From: Psammoneis japonica
Lineage: Eukaryota
NCBI GenBank assembly: GCA_008632985.1
Contig: QPGO01000357.1
Span: 1-41,579, forward strand
DNA length: 41,579 bases
Direction: 5' to 3'
Part shown: positions 1 to 26,261 of the stretch, one piece after another
Layout of the letters: the number at the start of each line of letters is the position of its first letter
Position numbering within the stretch: the first letter of the stretch is position 1
Position numbers and translations under genes: made by a program
The notes under the pieces: generated by a model
What the model was told of the DNA's origin: nothing
What the model saw: only the letters and a program-made list of their open reading frames with translations
The model's database searches: none

Positions 1-246
1 GCACACAGAGATCACCGATGCCACGCCAAGAAGACAACAAAAACCTGGCAACATGCTGACATTGGCGCCAGAATCGACTCGGATCCCACGCGCACAGCCC
101 GCAAAAACTGCATGCAACAACCACCCCTTGTTCCTTGTTCGTACGGTGTGACTGCATTGACCACACAATTTCCACTTTCAAAAGATTTCACTGAGGAAAA
201 CATTGCAATGATGACTTCAATTGTTGTGGGACGGATCTGTTGCAAC

Positions 247-423
247 GATTCTTGAGAATCTGCGATTCTTGAGAATCCGGACATGGAATTTTGTGAAAAC
301 CGTTTTTTAAGAATCGGACCTCGTGCAAATTTCCCGTTTGTTGTGAACCACCGATTCTCCAGAATCATGGTCACCGATTCACAAGAACTCCCTTTTTGGC
401 CATTTTCCAGATTCTCAAGAATG
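247..423. repeat. Six degenerate copies of the 14-bp palindrome GATTCTTAAGAATC (subterminal repeats)
   Basis: gattcttgagaatc 247-260 and 264-277; gttttttaagaatc 302-315; gattctccagaatc 353-366; gattcacaagaact 376-389; gattctcaagaatg 410-423. Confidence 0.75.
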
Positions 424-621
424 GCAGACATGCTCAAGATGTGGCACCCTTGCTCTTCGGCCTCCTCTTTCTTTGCTCCTGTTTTCACTTTGTGCCATTC
501 TGTTGTTCTTCTTGGCCAAGATTGGCCCCACATTGTCGCATCCACCGCCATGTCCGTTGCTCTCCCTCCCTCCCAACCAGATGCCACTGTCCTCACATCT
601 TCCAAGAAGGTGAGGGCCATC

Positions 622-1055
622 TGCCCCATGCATGCACTGGGCGCTGAAAAAGAAGATGTGTCACGACTTTGTCGTTGTGAAAATCATGAGCCAGTTTAGA
701 GTAGAAAAAGTGGGATCGTGCGAATGGGGAATCTTGCCAAATCCCTGTTCGCTCGCATTTGGATCGCATCAAATCGATCGTGCGCTCGCATTGTGGATCG
801 TGCAAATCAAGCCATCACGCACCACACACGAGTGATGTCATCGTGTGGAATCACACTGCCATCGTTGGCCAGATGACGGGCTAGTGTGCTTCACACGGAC
901 GCTCTCTTAGCATCCTTCTGGAATTGCTGAAGACCTAGAGCCACGCCCTCCTGTGGTCGTGCTTCCCAGGTACGTGTTAACAATACTACGTTGCCACGTA
1001 CAAGAGGCTTATGCACGGTCTCGCCGTGTTGTCCAGTAACGAGGCATGCTGCACA
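622..1055 (-). repeat. 3' LTR (last few bases and TSD damaged)
   Basis: Matches 5442-5874 and the reverse complement of 2806-3241. On the minus strand it begins TGTGCA right after the PPT catgggggag. Confidence 0.92.
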
Positions 1056-1092
1056 CTCCCCCATGATCAGGGCCGTTAAGTGACAGAATGTC

Positions 1093-2396
1093 TTACTGGT
1101 GATAGGGTACAATCTGCCGTAGTTTATACGTATCTATCAGCGCTCCGTTCTGGATACGCAACGTGCCGTTGTCATATACACGGACAACTCTGGCGGGTCC
1201 TGCATAGCTGTCAGAACCGTATTTAGAGGATTGTTCCTGTTTGATAAGTACCAATTGCCCTACGGTATATTGATACTCTTTGCGTTTCTGATTTTCACGC
1301 TTGTTGTTTAAGTGGATAAGCTTCTGCTTTCTGGTTTCTATGTGCTTCCACTTAGCACGATAGGCAATAGATAAAACCGCATCGCGTCCGAAGACCAATT
1401 GCATGGGACTTGCACGCGTGGTCGTGTGTACCGTAGCTCTAATAGCGAAGGCTACTGCGGAGAGGATGCCACTCCATGGGTCATCTTCATCCAGTTCCAT
1501 ATCCTGTACTGAAAAGGAACGTACCATGTTACCAAGTGTCTGGTGTACACGTTCCACTATGGCATTCGCCTGTGGATTCCGTTTACTTATGGGTTTCTTC
1601 AAAATCCCATGGTCATTTTTAATCATCTGGCTGAATTCTGCCATAAATTCTGTCCCACGGTCATTTGGCTAAATATATAAATTCTGCCATAAATTCTGTC
1701 CCACGGTCATAAACCACCTGGGTTGGCCACGGATATCTGCATAGCCACGTTTGTTCTACGACGTTTGCTACGACGTCTGCGCGTTTCGTAGACACTTCTT
1801 TAATCTCGAACCACCCGGTTGCTGGGTCAATCATTGTGACCGCCCATAATTGCAAAGTGTCCTTTCCGTGTCTTTTAATTTTATATGGCCCTATCATATC
1901 TATGCACAGAGTCTCCCATGGAATTATCTCGGCGACCTTTTCTGGTAGCTTCCCATAACGCTGCGTTCGGCGTTTTGTCTTCTGACATCGATCGCACTTA
2001 AAGGACGTAGAATGCACCGTAGACCTCATACTAGGCCAGTAGAAGTGCTGGGCAATAGATATTTCCGGACGTGTCTCACCTGGATGACACAGTGTCTCGT
2101 GGCACCATTCAGTTAGCGGAACCTGCAATGACTGTGGTACTGCGATTTTGTCCTTATGACCCTCCCCCACGATACGCGCGAATGGAGTAGTCGGACGAGT
2201 CCTTAGCTCGTGAGAGCAGGCACTTGTCCTTTTGTTGTTCTTTTTGAATGCGCTTGAAGTTAACAGGCAGATATAGCTCATCTTGAGCGTCTGCATTAAA
2301 GGCTTCATGCAAAGGACGACTCGATGGAGTGTCTTTTACATCCGGATTGGCCTCGGAAGGCAAGCTGGGTGCCAGTCGAAGGCGACTGAGAGCATC
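1093..2396 (-). pseudogene. Gypsy pol 3' part: RNase H end plus integrase (HHCC, D,D-35-E, C-terminal GP motif); frameshifted, mostly TpA-intact
   Basis: Motifs DALSRL, HETLCH...CDRC, LCIDMIGP, YDRGTEF, NPQANAIVERVH, YAGPARVV. Frameshifts near 2155 and at 1634-1710, where a 31-bp duplication plus 15-bp filler hits YDRGTEF. Confidence 0.93.
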
Positions 2397-2805
2397 CTCT
2401 CCGCAGCAGCCTTCGCCATTAGAGCTGCGGCACACACGACCACGCGTGCAAGTCCCATGCAATTGGTCTTTGGATGCAATGCGGTTTTATCTATTGCCCA
2501 TCGTGCTGAGTGGAAGCACATAGAAACCAGAAAGCAGAAGCTCACCCACTTAAACAACAAGCGTGAAAATCAGAAACGCAAAGAGCATCAACATGCCGCA
2601 GGGCAATTGGCACTTGTCAAACAGGAACAATCCTCTAAATGCGGTTCTGACAGCCATGCAGGACCCGCCAGAGTTGTCCGTGCACATGACAACGGCACGT
2701 TGCGCATCCAGAACGGAGCGCTGACAGATGCGCACAATCTACGGCAGATTGCACCCCATCACCAGCAAGACATTCTGTCACTCAACGGCCCTGATCATGG
2801 GGGAG
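2392..2805 (+). pseudogene. Inverted, TpA-hypermutated second copy of the integrase C-terminus plus PPT
   Basis: Gapless match to the reverse complement of 1056-1469; all Tyr codons became His/Cys and the TAA stop became CAA. Confidence 0.95.
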
Positions 2806-3608
2806 TGTGCAGCATGCCTCGTCACTGGACAACACGGCGAGACCGTGCACAAGCCTCTTGCACGTGGCAATGCAGTGTTGTTGACACGCACCTGGGAAGC
2901 ACGACCACAGGAGGGCGTGGCTCCAGGTCTCAGGCAATTCCAGAAGGATGCCAAGAGAGCATCCGTGTGAAGCACACCAGCCCGTCGTCTGGCCAACGAT
3001 GGCAGTGTGATTCCACATGATGACATCACTCGTGCACAGCATGTGATGGCTTGATTCGCACGATCCACAATGCGAACGCACGATCGATTTGATGCGATCC
3101 AAATGCGAACGAACAGGGATTTGGCAAGATTCCCCATTCGCACGATCCCACTTTTTCTACTCTAAACCAGCTCATAATTTTCACAACGACAAAGTCGCAA
3201 CACATCTTCTTTTTCAGCACCTGGCACACACACAGGGCACAGCATTGTTGACACGCACCTGGGAAGCACGACCACAGGAGGGCGTGGCTCCAGGTCTCAG
3301 GCAATTCCAGAAGGATGCTAAGAGAGCATCCGTGTGAAGCACACCAACCCGTTGTCTGGCCCACGATGGTGGCGTGATTCCACACGATGACATCACTCGT
3401 GCATGGCGCGTGATGGCTTGATTCGCACGATCCACAATGCGAACGCACGATCGATTTGATGCGATCCAAATGCGAGCGAATGGGGATTTGGCAAGATTCC
3501 CCATTCGCACAATCCCACTTTTTATGCTCTAAACTGGCTCACAATTTTCACAACGACAAAGTTGCAACGCATCTTCTTGTTCAGCGCCCAGTGCATGCAT
3601 GGGGCACA
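2806..3608 (+). repeat. Full LTR (2806-3241) followed head-to-tail by a 5'-truncated LTR (3242-3608)
   Basis: TGTGC...GCACA termini on the full copy; the second copy restarts about 68 bp inside the LTR and ends ggggcaca at 3608. Confidence 0.92.
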
Positions 3609-3611
3609 GTG

Positions 3612-5350
3612 ACAGTGTGTGTCGACTGTCGAGCAGAGCACTGCTGGCGCCACTGTCTGGCAGTGCCTCAATGGTTTGAGTCTTGCCCTTGCCATGTTTG
3701 GCATTCACAGCCATGAACAAGATTGGAGCAAGATGAGTCTTTTTAACTCGTTTGCGGGATTGGCCTACAACACGTGTACGATGGCAACTCAATTGTTCAT
3801 CAGTGCATTCACCCAATGTGTTGAAATTACCTGCATCGTGTCGGCAAGTGTCGAGTCTTCGGAATCACTTAAGTTGAGGTCGCGGAAGTGATTGAGCTCC
3901 TCCTCGCGTGCCTTGCGCTTTTTCTGAGCGTTGGGAAAGAACTCCTCGACCTTCGGTCCGTTGAGAGCATCGGTGTCTTCCTCATTCCGAGGTTTTACAT
4001 TGGGCTTGCTGCCTCCATCACTGGAATGTCCAGTCTTGACACGTTTCACGTGGTTGTTCGGTTGGGTCGTGATCAACGACTCACAATTGTCCGTTCTACG
4101 TCCCCGCTTGCGTGAAACCCTGGCATGTGGGTCGCGGTTACCTTCGGCAAGCTCGACCTGCTCGGTGCGCTTGCAGAACTGTGCAAATTTGGCGACAGCA
4201 TGCGCCAACGGATCAAAAGTCTGTAACATCATGAACTTCTGCCATGCGTTCGGCACACCGTACAGTCTGCTCACGTTAACATGTGCTGGGGGTGCATGCC
4301 GAATTTCAGCACATGTTGTAGAGAGGGTGCACGTCATCGCTTCTTGGCACAAATGCACGTGTCTTTGCCACATGAGCAGCATGAGTGATGAGAAATGCGT
4401 AGATTGAAATCTTGTGCTTCGCCCTCACGACTCATGACGCTTTTGGGCCACGTTCGCGCGGCGCCACCACTGTAATTTTTGAAAAAAACCCATGGCTGCC
4501 TTCATCAATTCTTTGGTCCTGCCAGGTGCAAAGAAGCCCAGGACCACTTCTCAGAGGCACAAAATGGTCAATGAGGGCATTTGCAGTTGTTGCAAGTGCA
4601 GTCTTGATGATTTCATCGCCTCAAACTAGTCGCATCATCGACACATCACGGATTCGCGACATGGTCTGTCGGTCTGTCAGTCCATCTGTTGACAGGGAAG
4701 TCTGACCTTCGTCCGAGGGGTCAGGCCGGATTTTCAGTGTGTGTTGCAGAGAGGGTGCATGTTAAAAAGCATGTGTCAACGTGAGCAGACTGTGCTCGAA
4801 CATGTCGCATGGTTCGTCATCAGGTGATGGTGCCGGTGCTTCTCCATCCGCCGTCACAGGTGGAAACTGAGAGACACAGCCGTCAACTTCAACAGCCCTC
4901 GCGACATGGTCACGAGCAGAAACCTCTGCGGGCTTGCGCATGAAGCGCCTGAGACAACGCTTCTGCAATGGTGCCGCCCCATGTGGGAAGATGCTTTCCT
5001 TTAGCTTCGCGACGCATGCTGCGTGCGCAGCGTTGGTTTGGGATGCCTGCTTCTCAGCGGCATTGTTGAATGACGTCAGAGCATCGCCCTGAAGCAGGTC
5101 ACGCACAAGGGCAAATTTCGCTGGCCCGGTCGTGATGTTTTGTCCATCATGCACGCGTTCCACGTTGCGCAGAAAGATCAGGAGTGTCTCGCATGTAGCC
5201 ACAGAAAGGCACGGGATGCCCATCTCGTGCGTTGGACCATCCGCATCAGTGGGGTTGTTACGTAGCTTGAACGTCTGGTGCTCGCCCTGCTGCAGCTCTT
5301 TCTTCTCCGGCCGTGCGAACAGAATCGGCGGCTCAACCCGCTTCTTCATG
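3612..5350 (-). pseudogene. Gypsy gag and N-terminal half of the aspartic protease, interrupted by a MITE
   Basis: MKKRVEPPILFARP...LLQGDALTSF...RRFMRKP gag signature. Removing 4263-4792 restores ...FE-YGVPNAWQKFM. The protease active site reads ALPDSGAS (expected ALLDSGAS). Confidence 0.85.
4263..4792. mobile_element. 530-bp non-autonomous Tc1/mariner-type MITE inserted in gag
   Basis: 25-bp TIRs CAGTCTGCTCACGTT(A/G)ACA.... TSD is TA at 4261-4262 and TG (converted TA) at 4793-4794. Excision restores the gag frame. Confidence 0.88.
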
Positions 5351-5441
5351 GTCGTTTTGAGATTTGTCGGTCCTGCCAACATTTCGTAGTTTCGTTTCTG
5401 TAGATTTCGTTGCCTCGCACAATGTGCGGGAGTGATGTTGC

Positions 5442-5874
5442 TGTGCCCCATGCATGCACCAGGCGCTGAAAAAGAAGATGTGTTACGACTTTGTCGTTGA
5501 GAAAATTGTGAGCTAGTTTGGAGTAGAAAAAGTGGGATCGTGCGAGGGAATCTTGCCAAATCCCCATTCGTTCGCATTTGGATCGCATCAAATCGATCGT
5601 GCGCTTGCATTGTGGATCGTGTGAATCAAGCCATCACGCGCTGTGCACGAGTGATGTCATCGTGTGGAATCACACTGCCATCGTTGGCCAGATGACGGGC
5701 TAGTGTGCTTCACACGGATGCTCTCTTAGCATCCTTCTGGAATTGCCCAAGACCTGGAGCCACGCCCTCCTGTGGTCGTGCTTCCCAGGTGCGTGTTGAC
5801 AACACTGCGTTGCCACGTGCAAGAGGCTTGTGCACGGTCTCGCCGTGTTGTCCAGTGACGAGGCACACTGCACA
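5442..5874 (-). repeat. 5' LTR
   Basis: TGTGC...GCACA termini; lies directly upstream of the gag leader; matches the other three LTR copies. Confidence 0.92.
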
Positions 5875-5876
5875 TC

Positions 5877-7150
5877 TTCATGGAGACCAAACACCATGAA
5901 GCTTTCAACTTGATCGCCTTTGGCGTCAAGGACAACCAATTTGATGATGTGTTGCTTGTGAACAACTCCAAGTTGATGCTTCGTTCTGAGTGGAAAACGA
6001 AGGTTCGCACTGTCAAGTTCTGGAACACCGGACTGGATGGGCTTGACCAAAAGGAGCTCTGCAAGCAAGTTGGCAACCAAGCTTGCTCCTGGGTTTGCCT
6101 CCACCTTGCAGAGACAAATGACTTTGGTTGCGACACTCTCTTCCAAACCAAGAAGAACTCCGATGGAGAGATTGTTTCAAAGCTCACAGCTGTTCACCTT
6201 GAGCAGACATTTGATGTCATGGTGCAGCACCATCACCAGACAGGCGGTCATCTAAAGCTTGCCCGAACATTCAATGACATCAAGAAAAAATGCTGCAATG
6301 TGACAGAACAGCTGGTTTCCCACTGCATTGATCTGTGCCCCACTTGCAGCAAGACCCAGCCATCTGTGGCAAGAGTTGAGGGGGCTCGTGTCCCAATCAT
6401 GAGCCGGAGTTTTTGTGACAGGTTTCAGATGGACCTTGTTGACTGCCGAAAGGACCCTCACCAGTTCTGCCCAGGGGACCCCAACTCCCCAACCATGAAG
6501 TGGCTCATGGTTTTGAAAGACCACTGCACCAGGTTGCTCTGGACCTCTGCCATTCCCTCCAAGGAAGCAAAGTGGGTTGCCAAGGAGTTCTGCCACATTT
6601 GTTCTTTGATCGGCTGCCCCCTTGCAAGCCACACAGACAATGGGAAGGAGCTCACAGCAGAGCAAGTGACTGAAGCCATCCAGGAGCTCAACCCGTGCTG
6701 CAGCACTGTCCAGGGTGGTGCCAGAATGCCTTCGCACCAGGGTTCTGTGGAGCACTCAAACCACCCAATTAAATCAGCCATCGCTTTGCTTGTCAAGGAA
6801 GAGATCCACAAGGGAAGCACCAATGCATCATGGGTGACGGGGCACCCCAAGGCAATGGCGTCTCTCAATGCAACTGCCAACAAGGGAAAAAGCGAGTGCT
6901 CTGCCTGCTTCCATGTCTTTGGCATGGAGTTCCATGAACTCCTGACAACCGTTCCCCTTGCAAACCTGCAAAGTGCCAAGACTGTTGCTGAGAGATGTGC
7001 CATCATTGGTGGAGACTACAAGAGGAAGATGCTGGCAATGGGCAAGGTCACTGAAGAAGAGATTGCTGCTGTTGTTTCCAGCAAAATTGGTCCATCAAAT
7101 CTCTCAGCCACTGACTCTGTTGCTTCAGTGGGTGATCCTCCTCCATCATT
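5877..7150 (+). pseudogene. Ginger/KRBA2-like integrase (HHCC plus DDE core), TpA-hypermutated
   Basis: HHQTGGH...CPTC; FQMDLVD; VLKDHCTR; HTDNGKEL; RMPSHQGSVEHSN; almost no Tyr and excess Cys/His. Confidence 0.85.
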
Positions 7151-7159
7151 TGGAAATGT

Positions 7160-7393
7160 GTGCATTTGGCGCAATTGGCTTTTTCCAAATCCGTTTTTTG
7201 CCAAATCGAAGGGCAAGTGCACACTTTGCATGTATTTTTGGGTGCACACTCACCTTTCGATTTTCGAAACGATCAAAATTGAAGGAGTTAATTGCACTAA
7301 ACTGCGCAGAACATCGGCCTCTCGCGTGATGAAAAGCAGAGCACCTGGAGCTGGAACAGGCCTGCAGGCAATCTCGCTGCCAACTTCCACGCA
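7160..7393. mobile_element. Possible ~234-bp insertion in the Ginger ORF
   Basis: Non-coding-looking stretch flanked by a gaaatgt direct repeat (7153-7159, 7394-7400); no convincing TIR. Confidence 0.3.
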
Positions 7394-8059
7394 GAAATGT
7401 CATCCCCCTCTCCCAAAAAATTGAACGCCTCTGCATCTGCAGTCACTTTGTTCTCACCAATTGAGTCTGGCAAAAACAATGGAGAGCAACCCGCATTGCC
7501 ACACTCACCAGCAGACACGGAACAACCAACCCCCCCCCCCCCCCCCCCCCTCCTTCGATTGCAGCCAAGGCATCACCAAACAATGTGAAGGCACCCCTGT
7601 CCAATCCAACCAGTGTGCTGTCCAAGCCGTGTGCATCCAAGGAATCACCAACCAATGCAGAGCCACCCAAAGCCAATTCAATTGCTGTGCTGCCCAAATT
7701 GGTCACAGCCAAGGAATCACCCACTGACGTGGAGGTTGAAAAAGATTCACAAACCACAGTTGGGCTGCCAACAGAATTGCCAACAGATGTGGAGCCATCC
7801 AAAGCCGGGGTTGCCAAGGCACAAGCAAAGCTGGAGCAATTTTTTTCTGGCTGCAACACTGAAGACACAAGTTGCCAAAAAAAATTTTTGGTCAAAGTTT
7901 CACTTCAACCGTTGGATGGCTTTGTCAAGCACAAGACACCGTGTGACCCTGGATGACGGCACCACACCAAAGTGTGTTCATCCACAACTTGATTGCCCCA
8001 GGTGCTGCCTGTCGGGCAAACCTTTCAAGGTGGCATGCTGTGACAACGATCACATCCAC

Positions 8060-8990
8060 AACAGCAGGAGCAGAAGCCAATGGTTTGACACAAAATTTGT
8101 CTCAAGTTTTGCACAGTTGCTTGCACACGAGGGTCACCCGCAAAACACGAGGATGCTTCATGTCATGTGTGGTGCAACGTCCTTGGCTCAACTTCAAGGG
8201 TCATTGAACAGTTGACCAATCTCGCTTTCAGGGTCAGTCACAACTCTCTGCTCCGCAGCCAACCAGTCATCACATTTTGCTGTGCTTAAATTTTTGTTGC
8301 CGGAAAAAAATGTTCAAGTTTTTGAGGGCCTTGGGTGCAAACTCACCACCTGGAATGACGAAATCATGTGCGCTCTCAAGAGGTGCGGCCTTGTGTCCAA
8401 GGAATCTCTCAAGCAAGATGTGTCTTGGAACATGAAGAGAATGGAACTCCACCAGCAGCCAAGAATTGTCATTCAGGTGCATGGAAAGTGCAAAGAGGAG
8501 AGGTGTCAGCAGCACAAACGGACACCCACAGCTGCGGCCCTCGTGCTTGCGTTTTACTTTGGGACATTCTGTCACCCAGGACAATGCCCTTGTCCTTGCA
8601 ATTGATGTCTCCCGAAAACTGTTGCCTTGCTGTGATGAACAAGCATTGTGATCTTTTGGAAAATGATCAATCAAAAGATTTGCAATTTCTCCGAAAAGTC
8701 AAGGGTGTCACCATTGACTGGGAAGAAGAAGAGCATCATCCCAAAGTTCCCAACTCTAACATTGTCACGATTGACCAAGAAGTTTCCACAAAAAACACTT
8801 CAACAGATGATCCCACAGTGCCTCAAAGGATGCGTTGTGGATTGTGCCTTGACAAGGAGCTTCCGGTGGACACGGTGCTTCATTGCTGCCAACTGACTTT
8901 GCATCTGCACTGTGCACTGGGCTGCCTTAACTCTGACAGTTTGTGCCCCTGCTGCCACTCAGAAATTGACGAGGCTTGCCTCGAAAAACT
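8060..8990 (+). pseudogene. Ulp1/C48-like cysteine protease remnant followed by a RING-like Cys cluster, within the Ginger element
   Basis: HFAVLKF...VQVFEGL...QTDTHSCGPRAC fits the H...D/E...QxDxxxCG layout; CGLC...CCQLTLHLHC...CPCC; several frameshifts. Confidence 0.6.
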
Positions 8991-10315
8991 CAATGACGAC
9001 AACGTCAAGTTGCTTCTGGCGGGGTCTGGAGCAGAAGCATCCTCACAGGTTCAAGATTGTGGGAAGCCTGGAAAACTGTCAGTTGTCCACAAGACAGAAA
9101 GTGTCTCGGACAGCTCAGAAAGGAAGGAAGACACAGATGACAAGTTGTCGCAGTCACCCCACTGTTGCGAGAAAAAAAATCCCAAGGGCTCATTTCTGAA
9201 AACAGGAACACAAATGAGGTTCAAAAGTTGCAGCTCTTTTTGGAAAGAACGCAAAGCCACAATTGCCGGATTCCACAGAAACACGGTGGTGACCTCTGAA
9301 GGCGACTGGTGGTTGGGATTCAAGAGTGAAAAGGAGGAAGATGAAACCATTGAAGAGTGGGAAAAAGTTGATGTGCATGATCCAGCAATTGCCTTGGAGC
9401 CACCACCAGGTGAACGACCCATTTGCATGTCATTGTGACTGTGGCATGTGTGCGTTGACAAGGAATTGCAAGAGTGGTTGCGGGAGGCAAAGTTGAAGCG
9501 ACCAACAATTTATGACCAACTCATTGCCAAAACAACAAAGGAATGTGGCGAAGGCAGTGCCTGGGCCATTGCCAAACCAACTGGTGTCGCAGCGAAACGC
9601 CAAACAATTGCCAAGATGAAGGACTTGGGAACCATGCCTGAACCCAAAACAGGACCTCCATGCAAGACATGGAAGCTGGATGGTGGCACACCAACCAGTG
9701 ATTTGCTCCCAAACGACGATCATCAAAACCGCAGAAACAAGAGAGCACACAGTGACAAACTCGCTAAAGATCATCAAGAACGCGGTCACAAGAAAATGAA
9801 GGTGCGATTTGAAAAAAGTTGTGCTCTTGTTCCCGGCTGTTTGGCCGGAATGAAGGTGGACAAAAGAGATCGCAACAAAGGCAACCATCTTGGAATCATT
9901 GGTGTGGTGCATGAACAACATCCAGAGAGCATGTTGGTCAAGGTGGTGACAGAAAGGTGGCATCACATCCACTCGCAACAAACCAAGAAACATTCAAGCA
10001 AGAGATTGCAGCCCTTTGCAGAACCAGCATGTGCCCGTCACCAAAGCACTTGACAAGTGGCGACAACAAGTCAGGGACGGCACGTTCGATGAATCATCTT
10101 GTCCAAAGACAAGTTTGAACAAGGCCCACAAGAACAGCACAGGAGACCAACCCAACAACATTGATCAAAAACAGGGTGCGGTTGTCACATGTTGCTTTTC
10201 ATTGCGAGGCAAACCCCCTCAACAAAATTTCAACTTTTTTCATCATTTTAACTTTAGCGCGACGTTGTCACAAGACTGAATGGAAAGTCTCGACACAAAC
10301 AGTTGACAAAAATCG

Positions 10316-10949
10316 GAATCCCACGGATTCCCTGCCTCCGCCTTGGCTGTCTGCACTCCGATGACATGGCACAGTGGAAGCATCTCTTGTCAATCGATGC
10401 AATCACATGGATGTTGTCTAGTGTGTGTGCAATGTTCGCACCCGCACATGGACTCACAGTGTTTGCCACGATGAAAATGGTCGCCAGCAGGTGAAGCAAT
10501 TGGGACATGGGACCAGGCTTGGAATCGCCAGTGCCAAGAAATTGGTTCCCTTTTTCACTGTGCACAGGGGAGGGAGAGGTGGGTTTTTCAATTTTCATCA
10601 TTGGCATCTCCTTGGAGATGCCTCGACAGTGCCATGGTGTCTCTCATCCTGCCAGACAATGAGGAATCCCTTGGGCTGTCCTCGTTTCCGCTCGTCTCGT
10701 CCGTCGTCCATCCTTCAACCCATTTCGCTGCTGCATTCGCACGTTGACTCTTGGTCCAGTCAAGGAGGTCCTCTCCTTGCTTGGCTTAGAGTCTTGGCTG
10801 TGAGAATCCCACAGATTCCCTGCCTCCGCCTTGGCTGTCTGCACTCCGATGACATGGCACAGTGGAAGCGTCTCTTGTCAATCGATGCAATCACATGGAT
10901 GTTGTCCAGTGTGTGCGCAATGTTCGCATCCGCATGTAGACTCACAGTG
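10316..10949. repeat. 3'-terminal repeat set: 146-bp direct repeats B2 (10316-10461) and B1 (10804-10949) around A2 (10586-10803)
   Basis: gaatcccac(g/a)gattccctgcctccgccttggctg...gactcacagtg occurs twice; A2 aligns to 21349-21566. Confidence 0.9.
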
Positions 10950-11189
10950 CTGCAAGCATTGCGACAGCGCCCATGTCAATGGAGGCAGAGCCAACCGGAA
11001 AAAAAAAGAGATTGTCTTCTGACATGAGGAACAGACAAATGTTCCTCTCGAATGTGGCACTTGAATCTGAAGTTCAGATGAAATTTTTAAAATTTCAATT
11101 TTGAATGTCTGATGCAGAAAAACGACAGCATGCGGATGGCATCGTACAGAGAGGACGAAAATGGAACAGACATGTGTGAACAGCAAGAA

Positions 11190-12330
11190 AACAAATTGGT
11201 CAAAGAATGGCACAGGTGCCGCCTTGTCGAGGGCTCGGCAGTGGGCCTGAGAGAGACCCAAGCAGTTACGGAGGTGCACCATGAAGGCGTTGGATTGCCA
11301 TCTTAGCAGCCATTTAATCTGCTCGGTGCCAAAATTCATCTCATGGAGGATGTTGCAGGCTCCAACATGGAGGGAATGTGCTGACCATTTGCTGACAGCC
11401 TTTTTGTCCTTCACCTGGTCGAGGTGGTGCACCTCTGCTGCAATTCGGCGCATGTGGGCCTCAATTTTCTTGGTTGTCACAAGGCAGCACTCATTCTCCT
11501 TGGGATCGAAATGGAGGGCCAGGGGGCAGGTTTTGTCATCTTCGCTGCGGACCCGTGCGAAGCGTCAGATCACGCGAAGCATCGGCTTGACCAAGTCGTG
11601 AGTGCCCGTGAGGTTCAAGGCGAACTGGCGCTCCTCGCCATGTTGCAAGTTCTTCTGGGCTTGAAACACAACAAACATGCTCTCGATGTCATCTTGCTTG
11701 GGGGCAAGGCAATCAGCCCCAGTGCATCGGTGCTTGTCCTTGGTCTCAATGCGCACATCATCAAGGCAGAACGCGCATGTCTCCTCGAAGATGTTGAGCC
11801 TGGGATTCTCCACGTCTGAGTGGTCATTGGACTGTGCCCACTCAATGCTGCGCAGGCCTGCCATCAGGCCGATCTCAAACCAGTCAGCGAGGACCACCTC
11901 GATTGCGTCGAGGTCAGTTTCTTGCATGTCTGCTGCTGTTGAAGTCGCGTGTTGTTGCACAAGCAACGTGTGCGACTCGCGTCGGCTCGGGACCTTGTCA
12001 CGCCATTGGAGTTCATCAAACACTCCCCTGAGGATCCATCCCATTTTGGTGTCCACACTGTTGTCCTTGCGGACGTCCCGACAGTTGGAACCAAACAGAG
12101 ACACGAACGTGGAGACGTCGTGGATGCATTCCTTGATGGCACCTGCAGAAATGTTTTTACAGTGCAGGGTGGCCCCGGTTGCCAGATGTGATGCATGCAT
12201 GGCTGGCACCAATTGGCAACATTTTAGGTCCTTTCCAACCACAGTCATTTCCGGATCGTCTAGATCCCACCTCACACTCTTGTAAAAGTGGAGGAAATGG
12301 ATTTGGCGGGAACGAGCTGTCCCCAAGTCG
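11190..12330 (-). pseudogene. Tyrosine recombinase of the DIRS/Ngaro-type element, inactivated
   Basis: GLMAGLRSIEW (box I Arg); SAHSLHVGA (HxxR box with R->H); LLRWQSNAFMVHLRN (catalytic Tyr reads His); frame break near 11565. Limits approximate. Confidence 0.9.
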
Positions 12331-12855
12331 CTTGGGATCTGGGGTGCTGTTCTGTGCTTGGCAGACAGCTGTGAGGAGAGGAGCTGTGAGAGCTCTTGAC
12401 TCGGCTGGAAATGGCCCCAGGTCTTCAGAAAGGGACACTTCCAAAACAGCTGTTCAGAATGGTGACGATTCGAGATCAGGGCAAAAACAGAAGGTCGTGA
12501 GATGTCATCTGCGACAAAATTCTTGTCACCGAAGATGTGATCGCCATTTGGGTTGGCATGCGCACGACGCAGCAATTCACAAAAAACCCATGTGAGTCGT
12601 TGCCCTTGTGGCGACTTCGAAGTGGCTTTGTTTGTCCGGTTGACTGATGCCATGTCATCTGAGTGACTTCTGACAACCAGATGCAGGGGGACGACGCCGT
12701 CCCGGAAGAACTCATGCACCTGTTCTGGAGTCACATTCTCCATGCGAACAACAATGGCTGCCAACTTGAGCATGATGACAACAAACTCCGCTGTGTTGAC
12801 ATGGACACAGTCCGGATCCGTTGACTTCCGCAGCCTGAGACCCTTTGCGATTTTT

Positions 12856-13245
12856 GACGCGTTCCAGCCCCAGGTGGGACTCCATGTGACATTGGGCCCG
12901 TAGAATTCCATGTGCGAGCTCCGCAGTTGAAGAATTTAATTGATGGACACATTTGTCTTCAACATCAAATGAACGGCCAAGTTTGTGGTGCAATTGTGCC
13001 TCTTGCCACTCGACGTTTTTGCAAATGCGCCTGCCCCACGCGATTCTTAAGACATTCTAGAATCGCGCTGTAACAAAAAATGTCAAAAGTTGTTGGACGG
13101 ATCGCTCAACAAGTGCACCGTAAAATGACACAAAATGTCGAAAAATTCACGTAGAAATCTGCGTGCGCGACATGCGACGTGATTCAAAAAACTGTCGATG
13201 TCACAGTTCAGTGGCACGAGGTCCCACCTAGACCTGGAACGCGTC
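12856..13245. mobile_element. 390-bp MITE (GACGCGTTCCAG termini), TpA-converted copy, inserted in RNase H
   Basis: ~25-bp TIR; 4-bp TSD tttt; excision restores WRPKIAKGLRL; second copy at 24237-24627. Confidence 0.92.
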
Positions 13246-14124
13246 TTTTGGTCTCCAAAAGAAAAGCAAACAAAAATTTGAGCTTGCAGCAACAGGCACC
13301 TCCGCCGACGTTGCTGGCGTCTCCAATTGCTTGGCAGTGGGGCACCCGAGGGATGACACATCCCATCGGTGCCGACCATGGGTCTGGAGTTGATTGGATG
13401 TGTGATTTCACTTCCTTGATCACATCCATTACATCGGAGGTCATCGGGATCTCAATTTTCAGCTTGTAGAGGAGCTGGGCCTGGGCGCGTGCGAGCAAGC
13501 TTGGCAGCCTGTTCCGGAGTTGGCTTGGCAGTTGAGTTTCAAAATTTGATTTCAAATTTTGGCGCTCGAGGATGCGCTTCACAATGGCGCACTGGACGAC
13601 CATCGCTCGATGCATGGAGTTCTGGAGTGCAAAAAAATGGGGTCGAGCCCATGGGCAATGCCTCACATGGAACTCAAATTGACCATGCAGATTCGCTGCA
13701 TCTAGCAGTGTGTGTCGTTGTCTGCCAAGCCACTCATGGAGTGTTTCAAGGAGCTGTTCCCGTTTGCATGGTGGCGTGCCCACCGACATCTTTCTCGAGT
13801 TGAAATGCTGGCCCAAGGCTTTTCGCAAATGTGAACAGAGCGCATCCAATTTTTCTTTGCTGAGGAAATCAGGAGTCTCGTCGCGGGGGAAACCCAGCAG
13901 GACACAGACCGCCAAAGCACTCGCCACGACGGTCCGCTCCATGAAGTCGTGCATGTTGCCACAAAAGTTGTTGTCGACATGGTGCTTGCAGGTCGGCAGG
14001 AGACGATGGCCATCAAGAAAGACTCCAGGGTTGATGGCATTGGCTTCCACGGGAGAAAAGGATGCAATCTCCTCGGCAGTGGGCTGCTCCGCAAACGACA
14101 TGGTCGGCAGGTGCTGATGAGCCA

Positions 14125-14680
14125 GACGTGTTCCAGCCGCACGTGAACCAAATCGTGCACAAAAACGACATTTGCGCGATTTTTGCGCGGTCCCCAACTT
14201 GCGATCGAACTTTCACCAACAAAAGCACAGATTCACACAAATGCAAATGTTTTGCAACACTGACAAGACTCGTGTGAGTGTTGCAACATCATTGTCATTG
14301 TGCCATCTGTGTTTTTCATTGCGTTAAAAGATTCGCAACACAACGGATGATTTTCGGCGAAAACATTGCCGTCATTTGGATGTCACCCAAAAACATCTTT
14401 CTACGATGCTGCTTGGTGGGTTTTCCACCTGCAAAAAAATCTCAGCATAAATCTGCTGATGTACAATCAGTGTTGAGTCTGCTGAGGAAGTTTGTGATGC
14501 ATGTCCCATGAGGATTTGAACACCCCTCAAAAAAACCATTTAAATGTTCATGCTCTAGAAGCCTGCAAAAGTCAATCCGTCTAAGCATTTTTGTTAAAAT
14601 GCCACATGCACCAAAACATGCATAAATTGCACTCCAAATCCGATTGTCGTTTTGTGCGTCACCTGGGACTGGAGCACGTC
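14125..14680. mobile_element. 556-bp MITE with related GACGTG(T/C)TCCAG termini, inserted in RT
   Basis: TIRs gacgtgttccagccgcacgtga and gacgtgctccagtcccaggtga; 4-bp TSD gcca at 14121-14124 and 14681-14684; excision rejoins VIELA-HQHLPTMSF. Confidence 0.88.
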
Positions 14681-16187
14681 GCCAGCTCGATGACATTGGG
14701 AACAAGCCAAAAATGTTGAGCCAGGGATTGCCTTGCATTTGCAATGGGGTCCCAGTTGCTCGGGTTGATCTTGTCCCCGAAGGTGCAACCCGTTTGCAGG
14801 ACGCCTGGTCCGCATTGGACGCTGGCATGCATGCTGACGAGGTTCGGGTGATGCTTCACATTGCGGAACATGCCACTCACGTCATCGTCCCCGAGGCAAA
14901 TCTCCTCATGTGGGTGTGAGATCCTCATGTTCCATGTCCACACCATGAAGTCCATTTCAGCTGATGGGAATGTGATTGGAGGTTCATTCTCCAGATCCAG
15001 TGTGTCGTTGATTGCCATGCCGCCCGGTGTTGGGCGCATCGTGCTGTCAAAGATTGGACGCGGGCTTTTGCACTTCTTGTCCAAATCTGCCATTCCTTGT
15101 GGAGTTAGATGGCAATTCAGCAAGTGCGGCACGAGCTGCTGGTCAAATGGCAATGTGAACCCCTTGCGAGATTGTCCTTGACAACTGCTGACAATGTCTT
15201 TGCAGGATCTGCATCAACAGTCTTGTGGTTGCCATGGCACAAGGCTGCTTGAAAGTTGGCTTCCGAGAAGGCAGCATTGCATTTCACTGGCACCCTGTCT
15301 TGGAAGATGCGGCGGACATGTGCCATTGTTTCATTGGGGACTCGGCCTTGCATGAAACGGAGGATTTTTGTCCGTGTCGCGGTGCTCGCCAACATGTGGT
15401 CCGCCAACCCAGCGCACCAGATTCGCCGGGTCTCCATCGAAGTGCAACAGCACAGCACTTGTCATTGCTGCTTGGTCATCATTGACTTCAGTCTCCATTT
15501 GCCACCCTTTTGGGATGGCCACGCAGCAGGTTGAAGTCAACATCGCCGTGTTCTTGGACCAGACCCATGAACACAGCCACTCCCGGGACAGCGGCGCCAA
15601 AATTCAACCAATCCTCACCAAAATGGATGCTGACAGACGCAGGATTCATGTGTTTGATTGGTGGTGACAGATGTCCCGACTTCCAGAGTGGCAACAGCAC
15701 ATGATGCAGACAGGCTTCGGACACAAAACATTGGTTCAAATTTTCCTTGCCGAATTTTTGGTCCAACTTGGCGCGAACCCCCGGAGACAGTTGCGCACTG
15801 GCAAAGTGCTCGCAAGCTGCCTTGTTGAAACCATTGTTGATGGCTGGGATCAAATCCGCACCCTTCTTCTTGTGAACCAACGTAAAAGTCGGGAACAGCT
15901 CCACCAGCTCTCTCTCTCTTCGAGAGGTGCCGTCGGCACAACCGCAAGCCAACGCAGGCTCGGATGTGGTTCCATCACAGACGTGGCAAGCGCAGCATCT
16001 GTGGCTGGAATGGCATCCTGAATGCTCATTCCGGCCTCCTCTGGCTCTGCATCTGCTGCTTCACACTCCGGGTCGCTGTCGTCGTCCACATCCATTGCAA
16101 TGAGACGAGATGACCCATCCGGGATGACACAGACCAGTCAAAAGATTGATGGCACAGATTGAAACAACACTGGGTTTTCAAATGTGT

Positions 16188-18143
16188 TTAGGATGCACCA
16201 TCTGGGCCCTTTCCTGGGACAAATTCGAGCCCCTGGGTGTCCCGGACAAATTGGCAAAAGGCGTCTCGCTTTGCCTCCAGAATCTTTGACACCAATGATG
16301 GGTGTGGCTTTGGGCAGTTAGGGAACTTGCAGCAGCATCCTTCAGCACAAAAATGCATGCAAACACGTTCCTCCTGGTCTGATCCGTTCTTCTCATAAAA
16401 GACTGGACAGGCAGGAGGGCGCCTTGTTGTTCCCGAAAAAGTGAGCATGCCCATTGCCTTGTAGAGCTCGGCCGCACTGTCGGTCGTGTCCTCCGCACGC
16501 GGCTTCTTCTTAGGAGGTTGACCAGACTTGGTCTTTTCATCCTGTTTGTCTCCAGCAGGGGGCAACACAGAACTCCCGAGAGGGACAAGGGCCAATGCAG
16601 ACGCTTCAGCAAAGGCGAGAGGCTTGCCCCGTGTGATGGCCGTGTTGAGATCCGCGATGAGGGACTTTGCCAGAGCACGAGCATCCTTCGCAATCTGATG
16701 GCTCAGTGGGCGCTCGGTTTCAACCGCCTGGCGGTGCAATGGAGAGTCCCCAATCTCGAAATGAACCTTGACAATGGTCTGGAAATCATCCATGACACTG
16801 GCAACGACTGGTTTCGGGTCCTCAAGGTTTTTGAGCCACGCACGGCCAGGATGCGACCAAAGGACCTTCGCGCATGCATCCAATGATTTCCACAACTCGG
16901 CATTGTCGAAGTCTTTGATCCAACAGCCAAAGACACAACGAAAGTTGCACAGTGCCGACCACAGATTGCTGGTGGCATCCATCCTCCCTTGGACACACAG
17001 GTCGCTTGCCTTTGCGTCGTCTGGGATCTTGCAGTCCGATCTGTCAGCAAGCACCCAATGGAGCGTCCTCCCTTCCTCCTCAAGGCTGGCAAAAGAAGAT
17101 GATGCAGTCTGGGGCGGAAGGAAGGGGAGGATTGACAGCTTTGTGCGGTGAGAAGCCTGGCTGTGCTGCGGAGGCTCCGCAACCACGTCAAAGCCGCAGA
17201 AACAATCCGCGCAGGCTTTGTTGACGACGGTGCACTTGTAGTCGACTCCGGCATCAAGACCACTGTCGCCACGAGCCGAAGCCACAACAGCCATCTTAAC
17301 AAGGTCCGCAAGGTCTCGGTTGGCGTTGGCTGCCGATGTGTCTTGTGGGATCTTGACTGCACTGTCCGCAAGCTCCCTGACAATGACCATGGGCGGGTCT
17401 TCCGGACCGGCACCAGCAGTCGCTCGGAACGCACATGGAGACCAGCGGTGACCAACATCACGCGCCCTCAACTTCTGATCTGACTCCTTCTTCGAATCCT
17501 GGCATGAGACATTGATGGTGTGGTTCGGGACCAGGCCGTTGGCGCCCTGAGCTGGAGCGGCGGGAGCTTGTGCATGCGCAGGCTCTTCACCACCGAGCTG
17601 CCTCCAAGTCTCATTCGCAAAGGCATCCATCGTGCTCTTGACTAGAGCACACCAATCCGTGAGAGGCTGGAGCATCTGTGCATCGTCATCATCAAGATTG
17701 CAGACCTCCAAACCGGAGAATTTGTCGATGACAGCAAAGCCAGTCTGCTCAAACACAGGGCCGCCTTCCGCGACGGAGACAGAAGCGTTGTGCTGCAGCA
17801 ACCAGTCGATGCCCTCAGCCCATGCCGCTCCAAGCGGAAAGTCAGCAGCAAGGGATGCTGGGGGGTTTGCCGGGTCGAAGTCAACAGGAAGAGCAACGCC
17901 CACAGGGATTGGTGGGAAAAGCGGGAGCGCAACAATGGCAGGGCGCTCAGCCGGTCCAGTGGGATTCCCAAAATGGAGACGACCCACCGACGCAGGGTCA
18001 CTGGTCCCGTCGTTGCCGACAGGACCGTCGGTTTCGTCAGGGCTCAGTTCGCACTTGGGCAGGTGGCAAGCATCCACGGCGCCTTGGGGAACTAAAGTGG
18101 TGACATGGCCTTGGAAACGAGTCCAACGGCCTGCAGCAGGCAT
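16188..18143 (-). pseudogene. ORF1 (gag-like) of the YR retroelement, with C-terminal CCCH-like zinc motif; open but TpA-hypermutated
   Basis: Long ORF upstream of RT ending in CMHF...C...C...H. Start placed at ATG 18143 because the TpA-intact paralog (19701-19944) has TAG stops in the upstream extension called in the ORF track. Confidence 0.75.
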
Positions 18144-18561
18144 CCCTGCGCAGCCGTCGTTGATGCCACTTTCCTGCGTCTGTGGGCTGTCCGTAGCGAC
18201 GCTGATCCCGCAGAAGCGCGCATTGGAAAACGCGACTCCTGGCACAAGACCTGTGAGAGGCTGCAGGAGGTCCATGCAACTGAGACCGGTGCGACTGGCC
18301 ATCGCGCAAGTGACTCACCTTGCATGAAGGGACTGCGTGGGGTGCACGCAGTGCCGAGTGTGAGCCTGTGGATTGGCTCTGCATGAGTGTCTGTGAGTCA
18401 CACAAAAGACTTGTCTCAGTTGCATGGACCTCCTGCAGCCTCTCGTGGGTCTCATGCTGGGAGTCGCGTTTTCCAATGCGCGCTTCTGCAGGATCAGCGT
18501 CGCTGCGGACAGCCTGCAGACGCAGGAAAGTGGCGTCAACNGACGGCTGCGCAGGGATGCC
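18139..18561. repeat. Fold-back: 18413-18561 is an inverted copy of 18139-18287
   Basis: Direct reverse-complement match of ~150 bp; contains an N at 18541. Confidence 0.9.
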
Positions 18562-19000
18562 CACTGCACTCGCCCCTGTGACAAGGTCGTACGAGTGACA
18601 GAAGGTCCTGCTGCTGGAGATGGACATTTTGAGGCATTTCACATGTGTCCACCAGCGCACCTTCTCGCACACGAAGTGTGACATTTTCGTCGACTTGAAC
18701 AACTGCAGCTGGCCCTGCATGACTGTCGGTGCCCGCCACTGTTCGTCCGTTGTTCTTGCTTGACAAGCACAAGTTGTCCCTTCGTTTGTTGGCACTCTCT
18801 TCTCTTAAAGTTCTCACGCTTGTCATTCAAGCGGAACATTTTCTGCTTTCTGTCTGCGACATGCCTCCACTTGGCACAACAGGCAACAGATGAACTTGTG
18901 TTGCGTCCGAAGACTGTCTGCATCAGAGTTGCCTTGGCAGTGGTCTGCAGCCCTGCAGTTGTACGTACAGCAAAGGTCACGGCAGAAAGTTTCAATCCAA
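18562..19000 (-). pseudogene. Diverged Gypsy integrase C-terminal fragment with PPT-like end
   Basis: LSAVTFAVRTT...MQTVFGRN...KWRHVADRKQK...NDKRENFKRRE...GQLVLVKQEQ, homologous to the 1093-1469 protein. Confidence 0.8.
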
Positions 19001-19700
19001 GGGTCGTCCTAACTCCATGTCTTGCAGTCCACTCGGATTGCTGTGTCAAGAACGCAGGTGTCACGCGGCTCCATTCCACCATGGAGTTCGCCCTGGGCAA
19101 AAAAAAAAAAGAAAAAAAGGCAGCGCATCGACACAATTGCAGAGGTGATCAGGCTCCACTTTCTGTCATGGCAACACCCATTCTGTCTTTGACAGGCAAT
19201 AGACAAAGCAAAAATTTCTTGCTCATATCACATTCTTTCACCTTCACGGAAAGAACGCATCTTTGAATGGCGGGCTTTTCGTCATAAAGCTCTTTTTTAC
19301 GCCAGTTCAGGTTGTTTTTTTTGAAGTTTACATGTTTTTTTGGCTCTTTTACGCCTTTTTTTGGCATTTTTATACTTTTGCAATTTTTATAGCCGAAGTG
19401 TCATATCCTTATATATAATATTCGGCGTTTCAAAAACGGCATTTTTCTTGTCCGTTGGCGTCGTTGAATTCAGTTAAACCGAATGGTCTGCAGCCCATGA
19501 GCGGTTAAGTACTCTGATTTTTTAGAGCATAAGATTGACTTTTACGCGGGTATTTGTCATATGTTGGGTTTTTTCGTTTAACCCTTCGAGCGTTTCGTCA
19601 CATAACGCCTCGTTCGTACTTTTGCACATAAAAGTAATAGCACTGTAGAATGTATGTATCTACTTTCACAGTATGTGCATCGTTTTCTGACACATGTAGA

Positions 19701-19944
19701 TTTCCTGCGTCTGTGGGCTGTCCGTAGCGACGCTGATCCCGCAGAAGCGCGTATTAGAAAACGCGAATCCTAGTATAAGACCTACGAGAGGCTACAGGAG
19801 GTCCATACAACTGAGACCGGCGCGACTGGCCATCGCGCAAGTGACTCACCTTGTATGAAGGGACTGCGTAGGGTGTACGCAGTGCCGAGTATGAGCCTGT
19901 GGATTGGCTCCGCATGAGTGTCTATAAGTCATACAAAAAGACTT
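19701..19944. repeat. TpA-intact direct copy of the YR-element leader 18170-18412
   Basis: Colinear alignment with 15 TpA->TG/CA, 3 CpG transitions, 1 other substitution and 1 indel. Confidence 0.95.
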
Positions 19945-21566: not shown

Positions 21567-21964
21567 GTCATTAAATCAATCGTCAAATGATTGCACCCAC
21601 AGCACTGCTAAAGTGATCAGTGAAGTCATCATTTGTGCGGACAAAAATCCACGTGATGAGGTCATTCGATGACCGATTTCCCAACAACATTGATCAAAAA
21701 CAGCTTTGTCGCAGGGTGCGGTTATCCCCAGGCAGGGCCTAAACCCCCTCAACAAATTTTCAACTTTTTTCATCATTTTGACTTTGGCATGACGTTGTCA
21801 TGAGACTGAATGGAAAGTTTCAACACAAACAATTGACAAACATCGGTCATTGAACCAATCTTAAAATGATCACACCCAAGGCACTGCCAGCGCAATTAGT
21901 GAAGTCATCGTTTGTGCAGACAAAAAAACACGTGATGAGGTCATTCGATGACCGATTTGCCCAG
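21567..21964. repeat. ~279-bp tandem repeat (unit 21567-21845, partial unit from 21846); the preceding partial unit lies at 10151-10315
   Basis: gtgaagtcatc...cacgtgatgaggtcattcgatgaccgattt occurs twice; 21680-21845 aligns with 10151-10315. Confidence 0.82.
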
Positions 21965-22159
21965 AACTTAAACAGAAAACAGTTTTCCATTTAAATTTTA
22001 GTCAAATCGGTCACAGTCATCAGAGCAAAAATGAGGACATGAATGTCAATTGGCCGTCATTCTGGTCATCTACATGAGACAATCAAGCTGTGAGGGAAAA
22101 ACCATGGTGCAGCTGCATCCATCACGCCACCACCATGAATGGGTCCATGCGTCACGACA

Positions 22160-22237
22160 CCAAACAACAGGTGTTGTCCCTCCACCGGTGGATTCCGAGA
22201 CCAAACAACAGCTGTTGTCCCTCCACCAGTGGATTCC
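22160..22237. repeat. Two-copy 41-bp-period tandem repeat
   Basis: ccaaacaacag(g/c)tgttgtccctccacc(g/a)gtggattcc twice. Confidence 0.85.
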
Positions 22238-26215: not shown

Positions 26216-26261
26216 ATTTCTCATGAAAAAATAGCCAACGACAACAACCTATGTTTGCACC

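Follow-up and report, generated by a model that had tools for sequence, protein, structure and literature searches.

TpA-directed hypermutation of repeat DNA in a Psammoneis japonica contig and its extended site preference

Introduction

We know of no cellular process, before one reported in a 2026 preprint, by which particular regions of a genome undergo A:T to G:C mutation at a single dinucleotide. That preprint concerns mutation-accumulation lines of Bigelowiella natans. Of their 302 nuclear point mutations, 231 lie in two viral regions, one from an integrated giant virus and the other from a virophage, and 230 of these 231 are A>G or T>C, all of them on TpA according to the authors (Mettrop et al., bioRxiv 10.64898/2026.01.13.699255). 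It was the sole relevant match in our literature search on TpA-directed hypermutation. Here, we describe a comparable pattern in a stretch of 41,579 nucleotides from Psammoneis japonica (GenBank assembly GCA_008632985.1, contig QPGO01000357.1; this whole stretch is hereafter called the window), in which most of the repeat DNA is depleted of TpA. Comparison of converted and unconverted copies of the same repeats makes it, in our judgment, highly probable that the repeats underwent directional, in-place hypermutation at the DNA level, from TpA to CpA or TpG (i.e., A:T>G:C at one base of the TA step).

The preprint also describes 124 clusters of TpA-poor, CpA+TpG-rich windows in the B. natans genome and an enrichment of reverse-transcriptase and DDE domains among TpA-poor predicted coding sequences, and its authors propose a deaminase of the ADAT2 type and name an ADAT2 candidate (bioRxiv 10.64898/2026.01.13.699255). 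Its main text contains no analysis of -2/+1 context (bioRxiv 10.64898/2026.01.13.699255). Among the editors derived from TadA, adenine base editor (ABE) 3.1 prefers YAC, and ABE8e-YA prefers YA, with YAY over YAR, where Y is a pyrimidine and R a purine (PMC12528748). On DNA, the natural amphioxus enzyme BjADAT2 prefers GAA, and TCG when the target is cytosine (PMC10354150). Fungal Tad2/Tad3 edits mRNA in RNA hairpins, with a strong -1 U, +1 A/G, and -2 C/U (PMC9600606).

Target specificity in pairs of copies

Two copies of a repeat that resembles a long terminal repeat (LTR) form an 848-nt inverted repeat near the left end of the window. Arm A (2392..3239, forward strand) is TA-depleted, and its partner, arm B (622..1469, reverse strand), is TA-normal over approximately 881-1469 and TA-depleted over 622 to approximately 880. 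An ungapped comparison showed that the arms are 92% complementary, without gaps. Positions 2401-2790 are the part of arm A whose partner stays TA-normal. Counted site by site, the reverse complement of arm B carries 33 TA within this interval, of which 20 are CA and six are TG in arm A, and seven are kept. In this interval, no TA of arm A stands opposite a non-TA of arm B, and 26 of the 31 mismatches are of the TA to CA/TG kind. The counts given for these 26 events in the original prediction, with the changed base oriented as A (TAC 14, TAT 5, TAG 4, and TAA 3), were reproduced exactly. Its ten GTA sites are indeed all GCA in arm A, and its seven survivors (TTAG, TTAT, CTAT, ATAG, TTAA, CTAA, and CTAC) are as listed. 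The pattern goes far beyond what chance would give.

This comparison, extended slightly to TA-normal 1071-1469 (reverse complement) against TA-poor 2392-2790, is the first of four pairs (P1; 26/33 converted, 20 CA/6 TG). In P2, a TA-normal copy at 24237-24627 is set against a TA-poor one at 12856-13245 (17/27 converted, 8 CA/9 TG). P3 and P4 compare TA-normal sequence at 19701-19944 and 19701-19817 with TA-poor copies at 18170-18412 (15/16 converted, 6 CA/9 TG) and 18413-18529 (reverse complement; 9/9 converted, 5 CA/4 TG), respectively. A fifth pair (1049-1413 vs. 18564-18932, 66% identity) gave no global alignment and was left out. In the four pairs pooled, 67 of 85 TA have become CA (39) or TG (28); there are no CG outcomes, three other changes, and no reverse cases. 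These 67 T>C or A>G changes within a TA of the TA-normal copy make up the bulk of the 98 mismatches.

When every A on both strands of the four pairs is counted, A>G occurs at 67/170 in TA context, and at 0/149 in AA, 3/135 in CA, and 1/140 in GA, thus at 4/424 outside TA. As a control for background substitution we used a gene duplication in the window (27385-29128 vs. 29559-31296), in which A>G is symmetric and runs at 2-5% in each of the four contexts. Conversion in the repeat pairs is strictly specific to a 5' T, with a near-absolute requirement for T before the changed A. The lack of any CG outcome fits a one-hit rule, by which the first hit removes the site for the other strand.

Two side observations concern the arms. 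In 2401-2790, CA outcomes (T>C on the forward strand, 20) exceed what the fitted context model (see below) gives, and TG outcomes number six against an expected 12.1 +/- 2.4. This excess in P1 is a weak hint of an additional strand bias, and the other three pairs are without it. In arm B, TA density switches near 880, and homology to other copies is unbroken across the switch, which could mean that the copy recombined with an older one or that a mutation tract has its edge there.

Direction of the change

Polarity cannot be read from pairwise differences, and three independent tests were used. The first is a four-copy alignment of a 367-bp repeat unit, in which five columns show all three states (TA, CA, and TG), each in another copy. 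Single steps lead to such columns from an ancestral TA only.

The second test relies on coding sequence. Only two open reading frames (ORFs) of the window carry transposon domains in Pfam searches. An intact-looking integrase ORF at 1664-2335 (-) lies in a TA-normal island and matches Integrase_H2C2 (4e-11) and rve (6e-5). A hypermutated integrase-like ORF at 5859..7421 (+) (P0007) lies in a depleted zone; it matches rve about as well (~6e-5), and its zinc-binding match reaches only 0.0016, outside the 0.001 limit. The two cannot be aligned with each other, so that the window offers no coding pair. In a library of 1.84 billion proteins, ORF 5859-7421 has 1,234 homologues at E<=0.001, and an alignment was built with 29 of the 33 that scored best. 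Tyrosine makes up 0.3% of the hypermutated ORF, against a mean of 3.6% (range 2.1-5.4) in the 29 homologues. There are four columns with Tyr in half or more of the homologues, and the ORF has Cys at every one of them (i.e., TAY>TGY).

Third, the TA-normal copies in the window have a TpA observed/expected ratio (obs/exp) of ~1.0. All 49 metagenomic relatives of the intact integrase fall between 0.57 and 1.02, and none is TA-depleted; it should be noted that this search used patterns of the Tyr-containing protein, so that converted copies were outside its reach. Judged from these three comparisons, TA is the ancestral state and the change runs from TA to CA or TG.

Among the 150 listed homologues of ORF 5859-7421, seven, from metagenomes and other public sequence collections, have less than 1.2% Tyr and carry His or Cys at Tyr-consensus columns. 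Four from public metagenomes (P0083, P0099, P0058, and P0140) have 0-0.9% Tyr, again with His or Cys at these columns. Judging from these sequences, organisms represented in environmental data seem to undergo the same TpA erosion.

Extent across the window

The window was split into zones at sharp steps in TA density (200-bp bins). Overall TpA obs/exp is 0.32, and it does not exceed 0.2 in 46 of 83 500-bp windows. Base composition predicts 1,624 TA for the depleted zones (27,113 bp), which have 151 (obs/exp ~0.09), whereas the genic zone at 25801-37400 holds 503 against 831 expected, an ordinary TpA level. In most depleted 500-bp windows, the obs/exp of CA and TG is 1.3-1.9, and in those that are strongly depleted it is 1.5-1.9. 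The signature of the B. natans type, TpA <=0.43 together with mean CA/TG >=1.52, is present in 17 of 41 1-kb windows.

From left to right, the zones are as follows. A depleted zone at 2..880 is followed by the TA-normal repeat island with the LTR-retroelement integrase ORF (881..2391, reverse strand; 12-16 TA per 200 bp) and by the largest depleted zone (2392..19199; TpA obs/exp ~0-0.3, CA/TG 1.3-1.8). A second TA-normal repeat island (19200..20160) holds the reference copy 19701-19944. Depleted zones at 20161..24236 and 24628..25800 follow, the latter ending ~460 bp before the first gene ORF. Beyond the spared genic zone (25801..37400), which serves as the baseline and contains the control duplication, lies a last depleted zone that is also CpG-poor (37401..41577). 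The tracts are of kilobase scale and run across element edges, and adjacent genes are spared. Zone edges are sharp, with the step confined to a single 200-bp bin, and the outermost gene ORFs are a few hundred bases away from them.

Pfam scans recognised no domain in most of the depleted sequence, and a tRNA scan of the window found none. Among public runs, X1 was the only one listed with this DNA (as contigs, share 0.28), and no RNA run was listed with it. Contigs of X1 (possibly the window's own source sample) were compared at >=90% with 801-20800, and 8,543 of them match, so that the depleted zones are high-copy repeats in this organism. Of 798 differences between these contigs and the window, 40 were listed, too few for context analysis: four are TA-linked, four rows represent two CA/TG double sites, 14 are CpG-linked, and 18 are other.

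Flanking-base preference

Raw counts of events need to be divided by the half-sites available, bearing in mind that each TA contributes two half-sites that depend on each other. In 2401-2790, the rates per available half-site are 14/18 for TAC, 5/22 for TAT, 4/14 for TAG, and 3/12 for TAA. The contrast of TAC with the rest gives a Fisher p=1.6e-4, which is rough because of that dependence. Over the 85 TA sites of all four pairs, the rates are TAC 32/52, TAG 13/41, TAT 15/48, and TAA 7/29 (likelihood-ratio test [LRT] against equal rates, p=0.0017).

The sites that remain give a second view. YTAR makes up 71 of the 151 TA left in depleted zones, against 35/185 in the TA-normal repeat islands (p=4e-9) and 76/503 in the genic zone (p=9e-17), which bears out the remark in the original prediction that leftover TAs are often YTAR. 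Relative to TA-normal sequence, survival is best for TTAA (0.47), CTAA and TTAG (0.37), and CTAG (0.29), and lowest for ATAT (0 left), ATAG and CTAT (0.02), and ATAC and GTAT (0.03). In survival data alone, the effect of the +1 base on one strand is confounded with that of the -2 base on the opposite strand. The two come apart in the strand-resolved pairs: ATAC was hit over GTAT 15:2, ATAG over CTAT 4:2, and CTAC over GTAG 9:4.

A joint fit to pairs and survival gives relative rates by -2 base of A 1.0, C 0.46, T 0.45, and G 0.34, and by +1 base of T 1.0, C 0.98, G 0.49, and A 0.26, and needs both terms (LRT p ~1e-5 each). In the pair data alone, the +1 base favours C (1.0) over T (0.59). The preference is real: a 3' pyrimidine is favoured (TAC ~ TAT > TAG > TAA), an A at -2 helps, YTAR is resistant, and the best site is A-T-A-Y.

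The flanking-base bias on which the original prediction depended is therefore present, in the pairs as in the joint fit, and the -2 A preference is an addition that it had not seen. Its order TAC > TAT > TAG/TAA fared less well. The preference for TAC holds in 2401-2790, but the step from TAT to TAG/TAA only reflects site availability, and the strict order is not established, given that the joint fit places TAT level with TAC, followed by TAG and then TAA.

Action on DNA and in place

Along each copy, CA outcomes are intermixed with TG outcomes, and both strands were therefore targeted. The tandem 367-bp copies at 2873-3239 and 3240-3606 are in different states at homologous sites, which shows that they were changed in place after the duplication.

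Further evidence comes from a 391-bp element that resembles a miniature inverted-repeat transposable element (MITE), with 20-nt terminal inverted repeats that match at 18 of 20 positions. One copy (12856..13245, forward strand) is partly converted, with 17 of 27 TA now CA or TG, and has TTTT flanks. The other (24237..24627, forward strand) is TA-normal and has ATGC on both flanks; its 27 TA lie exactly inside the element ends, within a TA-free zone. This copy was thus inserted after its surroundings had been cleared and has been spared since. By far the highest summed depth of X1 contigs (113,900, in bin 12807-13473) lies over the element. The MITE-like element, which is without an RNA stage, and LTR-type sequence are both affected. 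These sequence patterns argue for a process that acts at the DNA level and that would be episodic, or slow relative to transposition.

Beside these stand the two TA-depleted copies of repeat 19701-19944, at 18170-18412 (+) and 18413-18529 (-), with 15/16 and 9/9 TA converted. They belong to a palindrome-like stretch in the depleted zone (18132-18568, 437 nt, 77% self-complementary) that is made of inverted copies of this repeat.

Mechanism and alternative explanations

When an adenine deaminase is added as the agent, the whole statement stands, in our estimate, at about even odds. The agent would be an enzyme that is guided to the chromatin of silent repeats. Most likely, it would be a zinc adenine deaminase with the cytidine deaminase (CDA) fold and its HxE...PCxxC motif, of the TadA/ADAT2 type, acting on DNA. 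Its product, deoxyinosine, would be copied as G. Whatever the agent, one hit ends targeting, as CA and TG are no longer targets, and the process runs until only poor-context YTAR sites remain. It would be the same kind of process as the de novo TpA hypermutation in the B. natans lines. An adenine deaminase is a plausible agent and not a new proposal, having been put forward in print for the same signature in B. natans. As for a TadA/ADAT-like deaminase acting on DNA, which the original prediction had suggested, the directionality, the 5'-T rule (67/170 vs. 4/424), the flank bias, and the likeness to TadA editors all favour it, and the flank order as first stated does not. More tentatively, and with the balance in our view somewhat against it, the window may record a dedicated genome defence (a "reverse RIP", after the repeat-induced point mutation of fungi) in at least one eukaryote besides B. 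natans, whereby a TadA/ADAT2-derived DNA adenine deaminase guided to silent repeats would erase TpA in place from retroelements and DNA transposons, with the motif A-T-A-Y.

Several points weigh against this interpretation. Because TpA is its own complement, every event may equally be a T>C change of the T in (R)TA(T); sequence does not tell whether A or T is attacked, and "adenine" is an assumption. Across the window, Pfam scans covering 17, 150, and 31 ORFs matched no deaminase, as the original prediction had said. TadA-derived editors accept both C and T at -1, but CA was changed here at only 3/135, and the flanks of natural ADAT2 enzymes differ as well (GAA on DNA in amphioxus; +1 A/G and -2 C/U in fungi, in the reports available). 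TA-normal and converted copies coexist at ~91-92% identity, which makes pure homology triggering, as in RIP, doubtful. The sample is small, with 85 TA sites in four pairs, of which two (P3 and P4) have a 117-bp reference in common. As baseline for composition, genic and island TA take the place of the unknown ancestors. Pair data alone give TAC > TAT, whereas survival data give TAT >= TAC. Finally, CpG decay accounts for some of the CA/TG excess (four alignment columns; 14 of the 40 listed X1 differences).

An unlikely explanation is that thymine is the target of the same in-place process on DNA. A TET/JBP-type hydroxylase would mark the T of TpA in silent repeats as 5-hydroxymethyluracil (5hmU), leading on to 5-formyluracil (5fU), and occasional mispairing with G would produce T>C with the motif (R)-T-A-(T). 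The palindromic nature of TA lets all events be read equally as T>C, and oxidised thymines do mispair with G. In dinoflagellates, 5hmU preferentially replaces T in TA and TC through a TET/JBP homologue, and it lies on transposable elements and silences them (PMC11572971). However, TA alone is changed in the window and not TC (T>C before C corresponds to A>G after G, 1/140). 5hmU is, moreover, generally a weak mutagen, and the flank hierarchy matches a pattern known from a TadA variant. Judged by its motif, the agent is most like a TadA-fold enzyme acting on DNA, yet a thymine-directed (R)TA(T) enzyme would fit the sequence data equally.

We consider it rather improbable that the cause is not a deaminase but a context-specific polymerase or repair bias at TpA in late-replicating or compacted heterochromatic repeats. 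Regional tracts with sharp edges and spared genes would be natural under such a bias. Nevertheless, the specificity for one dinucleotide exceeds 40-fold and the -2/+1 motif is asymmetric, as is typical of enzymes that flip out a base. We know of no such repair bias at TpA. In B. natans, the mutations are reported to arise in bursts and in some lines only, which suggests a regulated activity.

It is very unlikely that the pattern is an artefact in which a modified base at TpA in repeats was misread as C or G during sequencing or consensus calling. Modified bases do cause systematic miscalls in long reads. Against this, X1 contigs (with the caveat on their origin noted above) match the TA-free stretches at 8548-8884 with one other letter and at 15183-15612 with none, and the same site can be CA in one homologous copy and TG in another. 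The integrase homologues from metagenomes with Tyr below 1.2% and His or Cys at Tyr columns are also hard to reconcile with miscalling, and for B. natans, mutation calling relied on Illumina reads (bioRxiv 10.64898/2026.01.13.699255).

Slightly less credible again is RNA editing, in which transcripts of transposons would undergo A-to-I editing of the ADAR or ADAT type and be reverse transcribed, so that copies would be inserted already mutated. LTR-type elements are among the targets, and a 5'-U preference is reported for ADAR and fungal ADAT editing. But single copies are changed on both strands (20 CA/6 TG, 8/9, 6/9, and 5/4), the tandem copies diverged in place, the MITE-like element with its inverted termini and no RNA stage is converted at 17/27, and tracts cross element edges. 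ADAR is also weakly selective at -1 and favours G/A at +1 (PMC9600606), whereas AA was changed here at 0/149. ADAR hyper-editing fixed by retrotransposition would put A>G on the transcribed strand of retroelements alone, with a loose -1 preference, and does not fit the two-strand changes, the intact AA sites, the MITE-like element, and the in-place changes of the tandem copies.

Reverse polarity, with RIP-like C>T at CpA giving rise to the TA-rich copies from an original TA-free state, can practically be dismissed: CpA is the target of RIP in fungal repeats and pairwise differences alone are blind to direction, but the TA-free ORF has Cys at the Tyr-consensus columns of 29 outside homologues, five columns show three states, TA-rich copies have the ordinary TpA (~1.0) of the 49 outside relatives while TA-free zones are at ~0.09, and the TA-rich integrase ORF is the better match to the zinc-binding domain (4e-11 vs. 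0.0016).

CpG decay, false ORFs, and the genic zone

A second, separate process in the repeats is CpG decay, as seen in four alignment columns that hold CG, CA, and TG, the states left by decay of methyl-CpG. CpG obs/exp is 0.2-0.5 in 6001-10000 and 38001-41000, and 23401-24200 is also strongly CpG-poor. Zones without TA but with normal CpG (11501-12000 and 20501-21000) show that the two losses are separable. The CpG-poor subset of the depleted zones suggests decay of methylated cytosines on older or differently marked repeats.

Loss of TpA may also distort gene prediction. Per kb and strand, depleted zones have 2.3 TAA and 1.5 TAG, against 8.0 and 10.5 in the genic zone (TGA, 21 vs. 17). As TAA and TAG are almost gone, long ORFs overlap in several frames (e.g., 16191-18314 [-], 11568-12935 [-], and 8359-9435 [+]). 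The first of these, of 708 amino acids, has no Pfam match, no homologue at E<=0.001 in a scored set of 7,997 candidates, and no Atlas score as high as 0.9, and is treated as a false ORF. Gene finders may call such ORFs in TA-free zones genes.

The spared genic zone contains ORFs that are Ipi1/TEX10-like, that carry DUF285, and that carry Rad60-SLD, which marks the source as a eukaryote. Relatives of the Ipi1/TEX10-like ORF are 21-33% identical, and those of a DUF285 ORF 35-55%. The control duplication (27385-29128 and 29559-31296) is direct, 1.75 kb long, and 93.6% identical, and comprises the 3' part of the Ipi1/TEX10-like ORF together with sequence downstream of it; its second copy is split into shorter ORFs. 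At 31363-32465, two neighbouring ORFs carry DUF285 (BspA-type leucine-rich repeat), with a red alga as the best named relative (51% identity over half the query). Two tandem 170-nt copies at 36337-36677 (96% identity, 171 from start to start) lie inside the Rad60-SLD ORF at 35444-37057 (-).

Comparison with known systems

RIP in fungi shares with the window a transition hypermutation of repeated or foreign DNA that is dinucleotide-specific and leaves a compositional scar and dead elements. It differs in that RIP makes TpA from CpA by C>T, whereas TpA is destroyed here by A:T>G:C, and in that converted and unconverted copies of one family coexist here. With its polarity reversed, the process in the window does not belong to RIP.

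The 5hmU of dinoflagellates resembles it in the T of TpA, in the concentration on transposable elements, and in the setting of a protist of the Stramenopiles-Alveolata-Rhizaria (SAR) group, but 5hmU also occurs at TpC, and the role reported for it is in silencing and not in the generation of T>C mutations (PMC11572971).

ADAT2/ADAT3 are natural enzymes of the CDA fold whose tRNA substrate has U before the edited A, and the fungal enzyme keeps the -1 U on mRNA. The reported flank preferences of BjADAT2 and of fungal Tad2/Tad3 are nonetheless opposite to those measured here. TadA-derived editors agree in making A>G changes in DNA with a 5' pyrimidine and with a 3' pyrimidine over a 3' purine. 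In contrast to the process in the window, they are engineered and Cas9-guided and accept C at -1 where T alone is found here, and the available accounts report no -2 A effect in them. The extended site preference (-2 A, -1 T, +1 pyrimidine, YTAR resistant) can be compared with that of candidate enzymes in vitro and narrows the choice among them. If a natural DNA adenine deaminase is indeed responsible, it would be a natural counterpart of the laboratory adenine base editors, with a bearing on the evolution of genome defence and on base-editing tools.

The closest system is that of B. natans, with the same TpA-only A>G/T>C signature, spared genes, and transposon-type domains among TpA-poor sequences. 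Its pattern of selfish targets and spared genes recurs in the window, where an integrase ORF and the MITE-like element are converted and genic TpA is ordinary. The differences are that the mutations there arose de novo, reportedly at a rate about 1000-fold over background, and those here are historical differences only, that depletion here is ~0.09 obs/exp over 27 kb against 0.45 in the B. natans region derived from a nucleocytoplasmic large DNA virus (NCLDV), and that the targets here are high-copy repeats including the MITE-like element. The window shows an end state, in which repeat DNA is almost TpA-free, and it places ordinary transposons, including a MITE of the DNA type, among the targets. 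We regard it as a further case of the recently described TpA hypermutation, to which it adds an extended motif, in-place action at the DNA level on a DNA transposon, and a near-complete end state.

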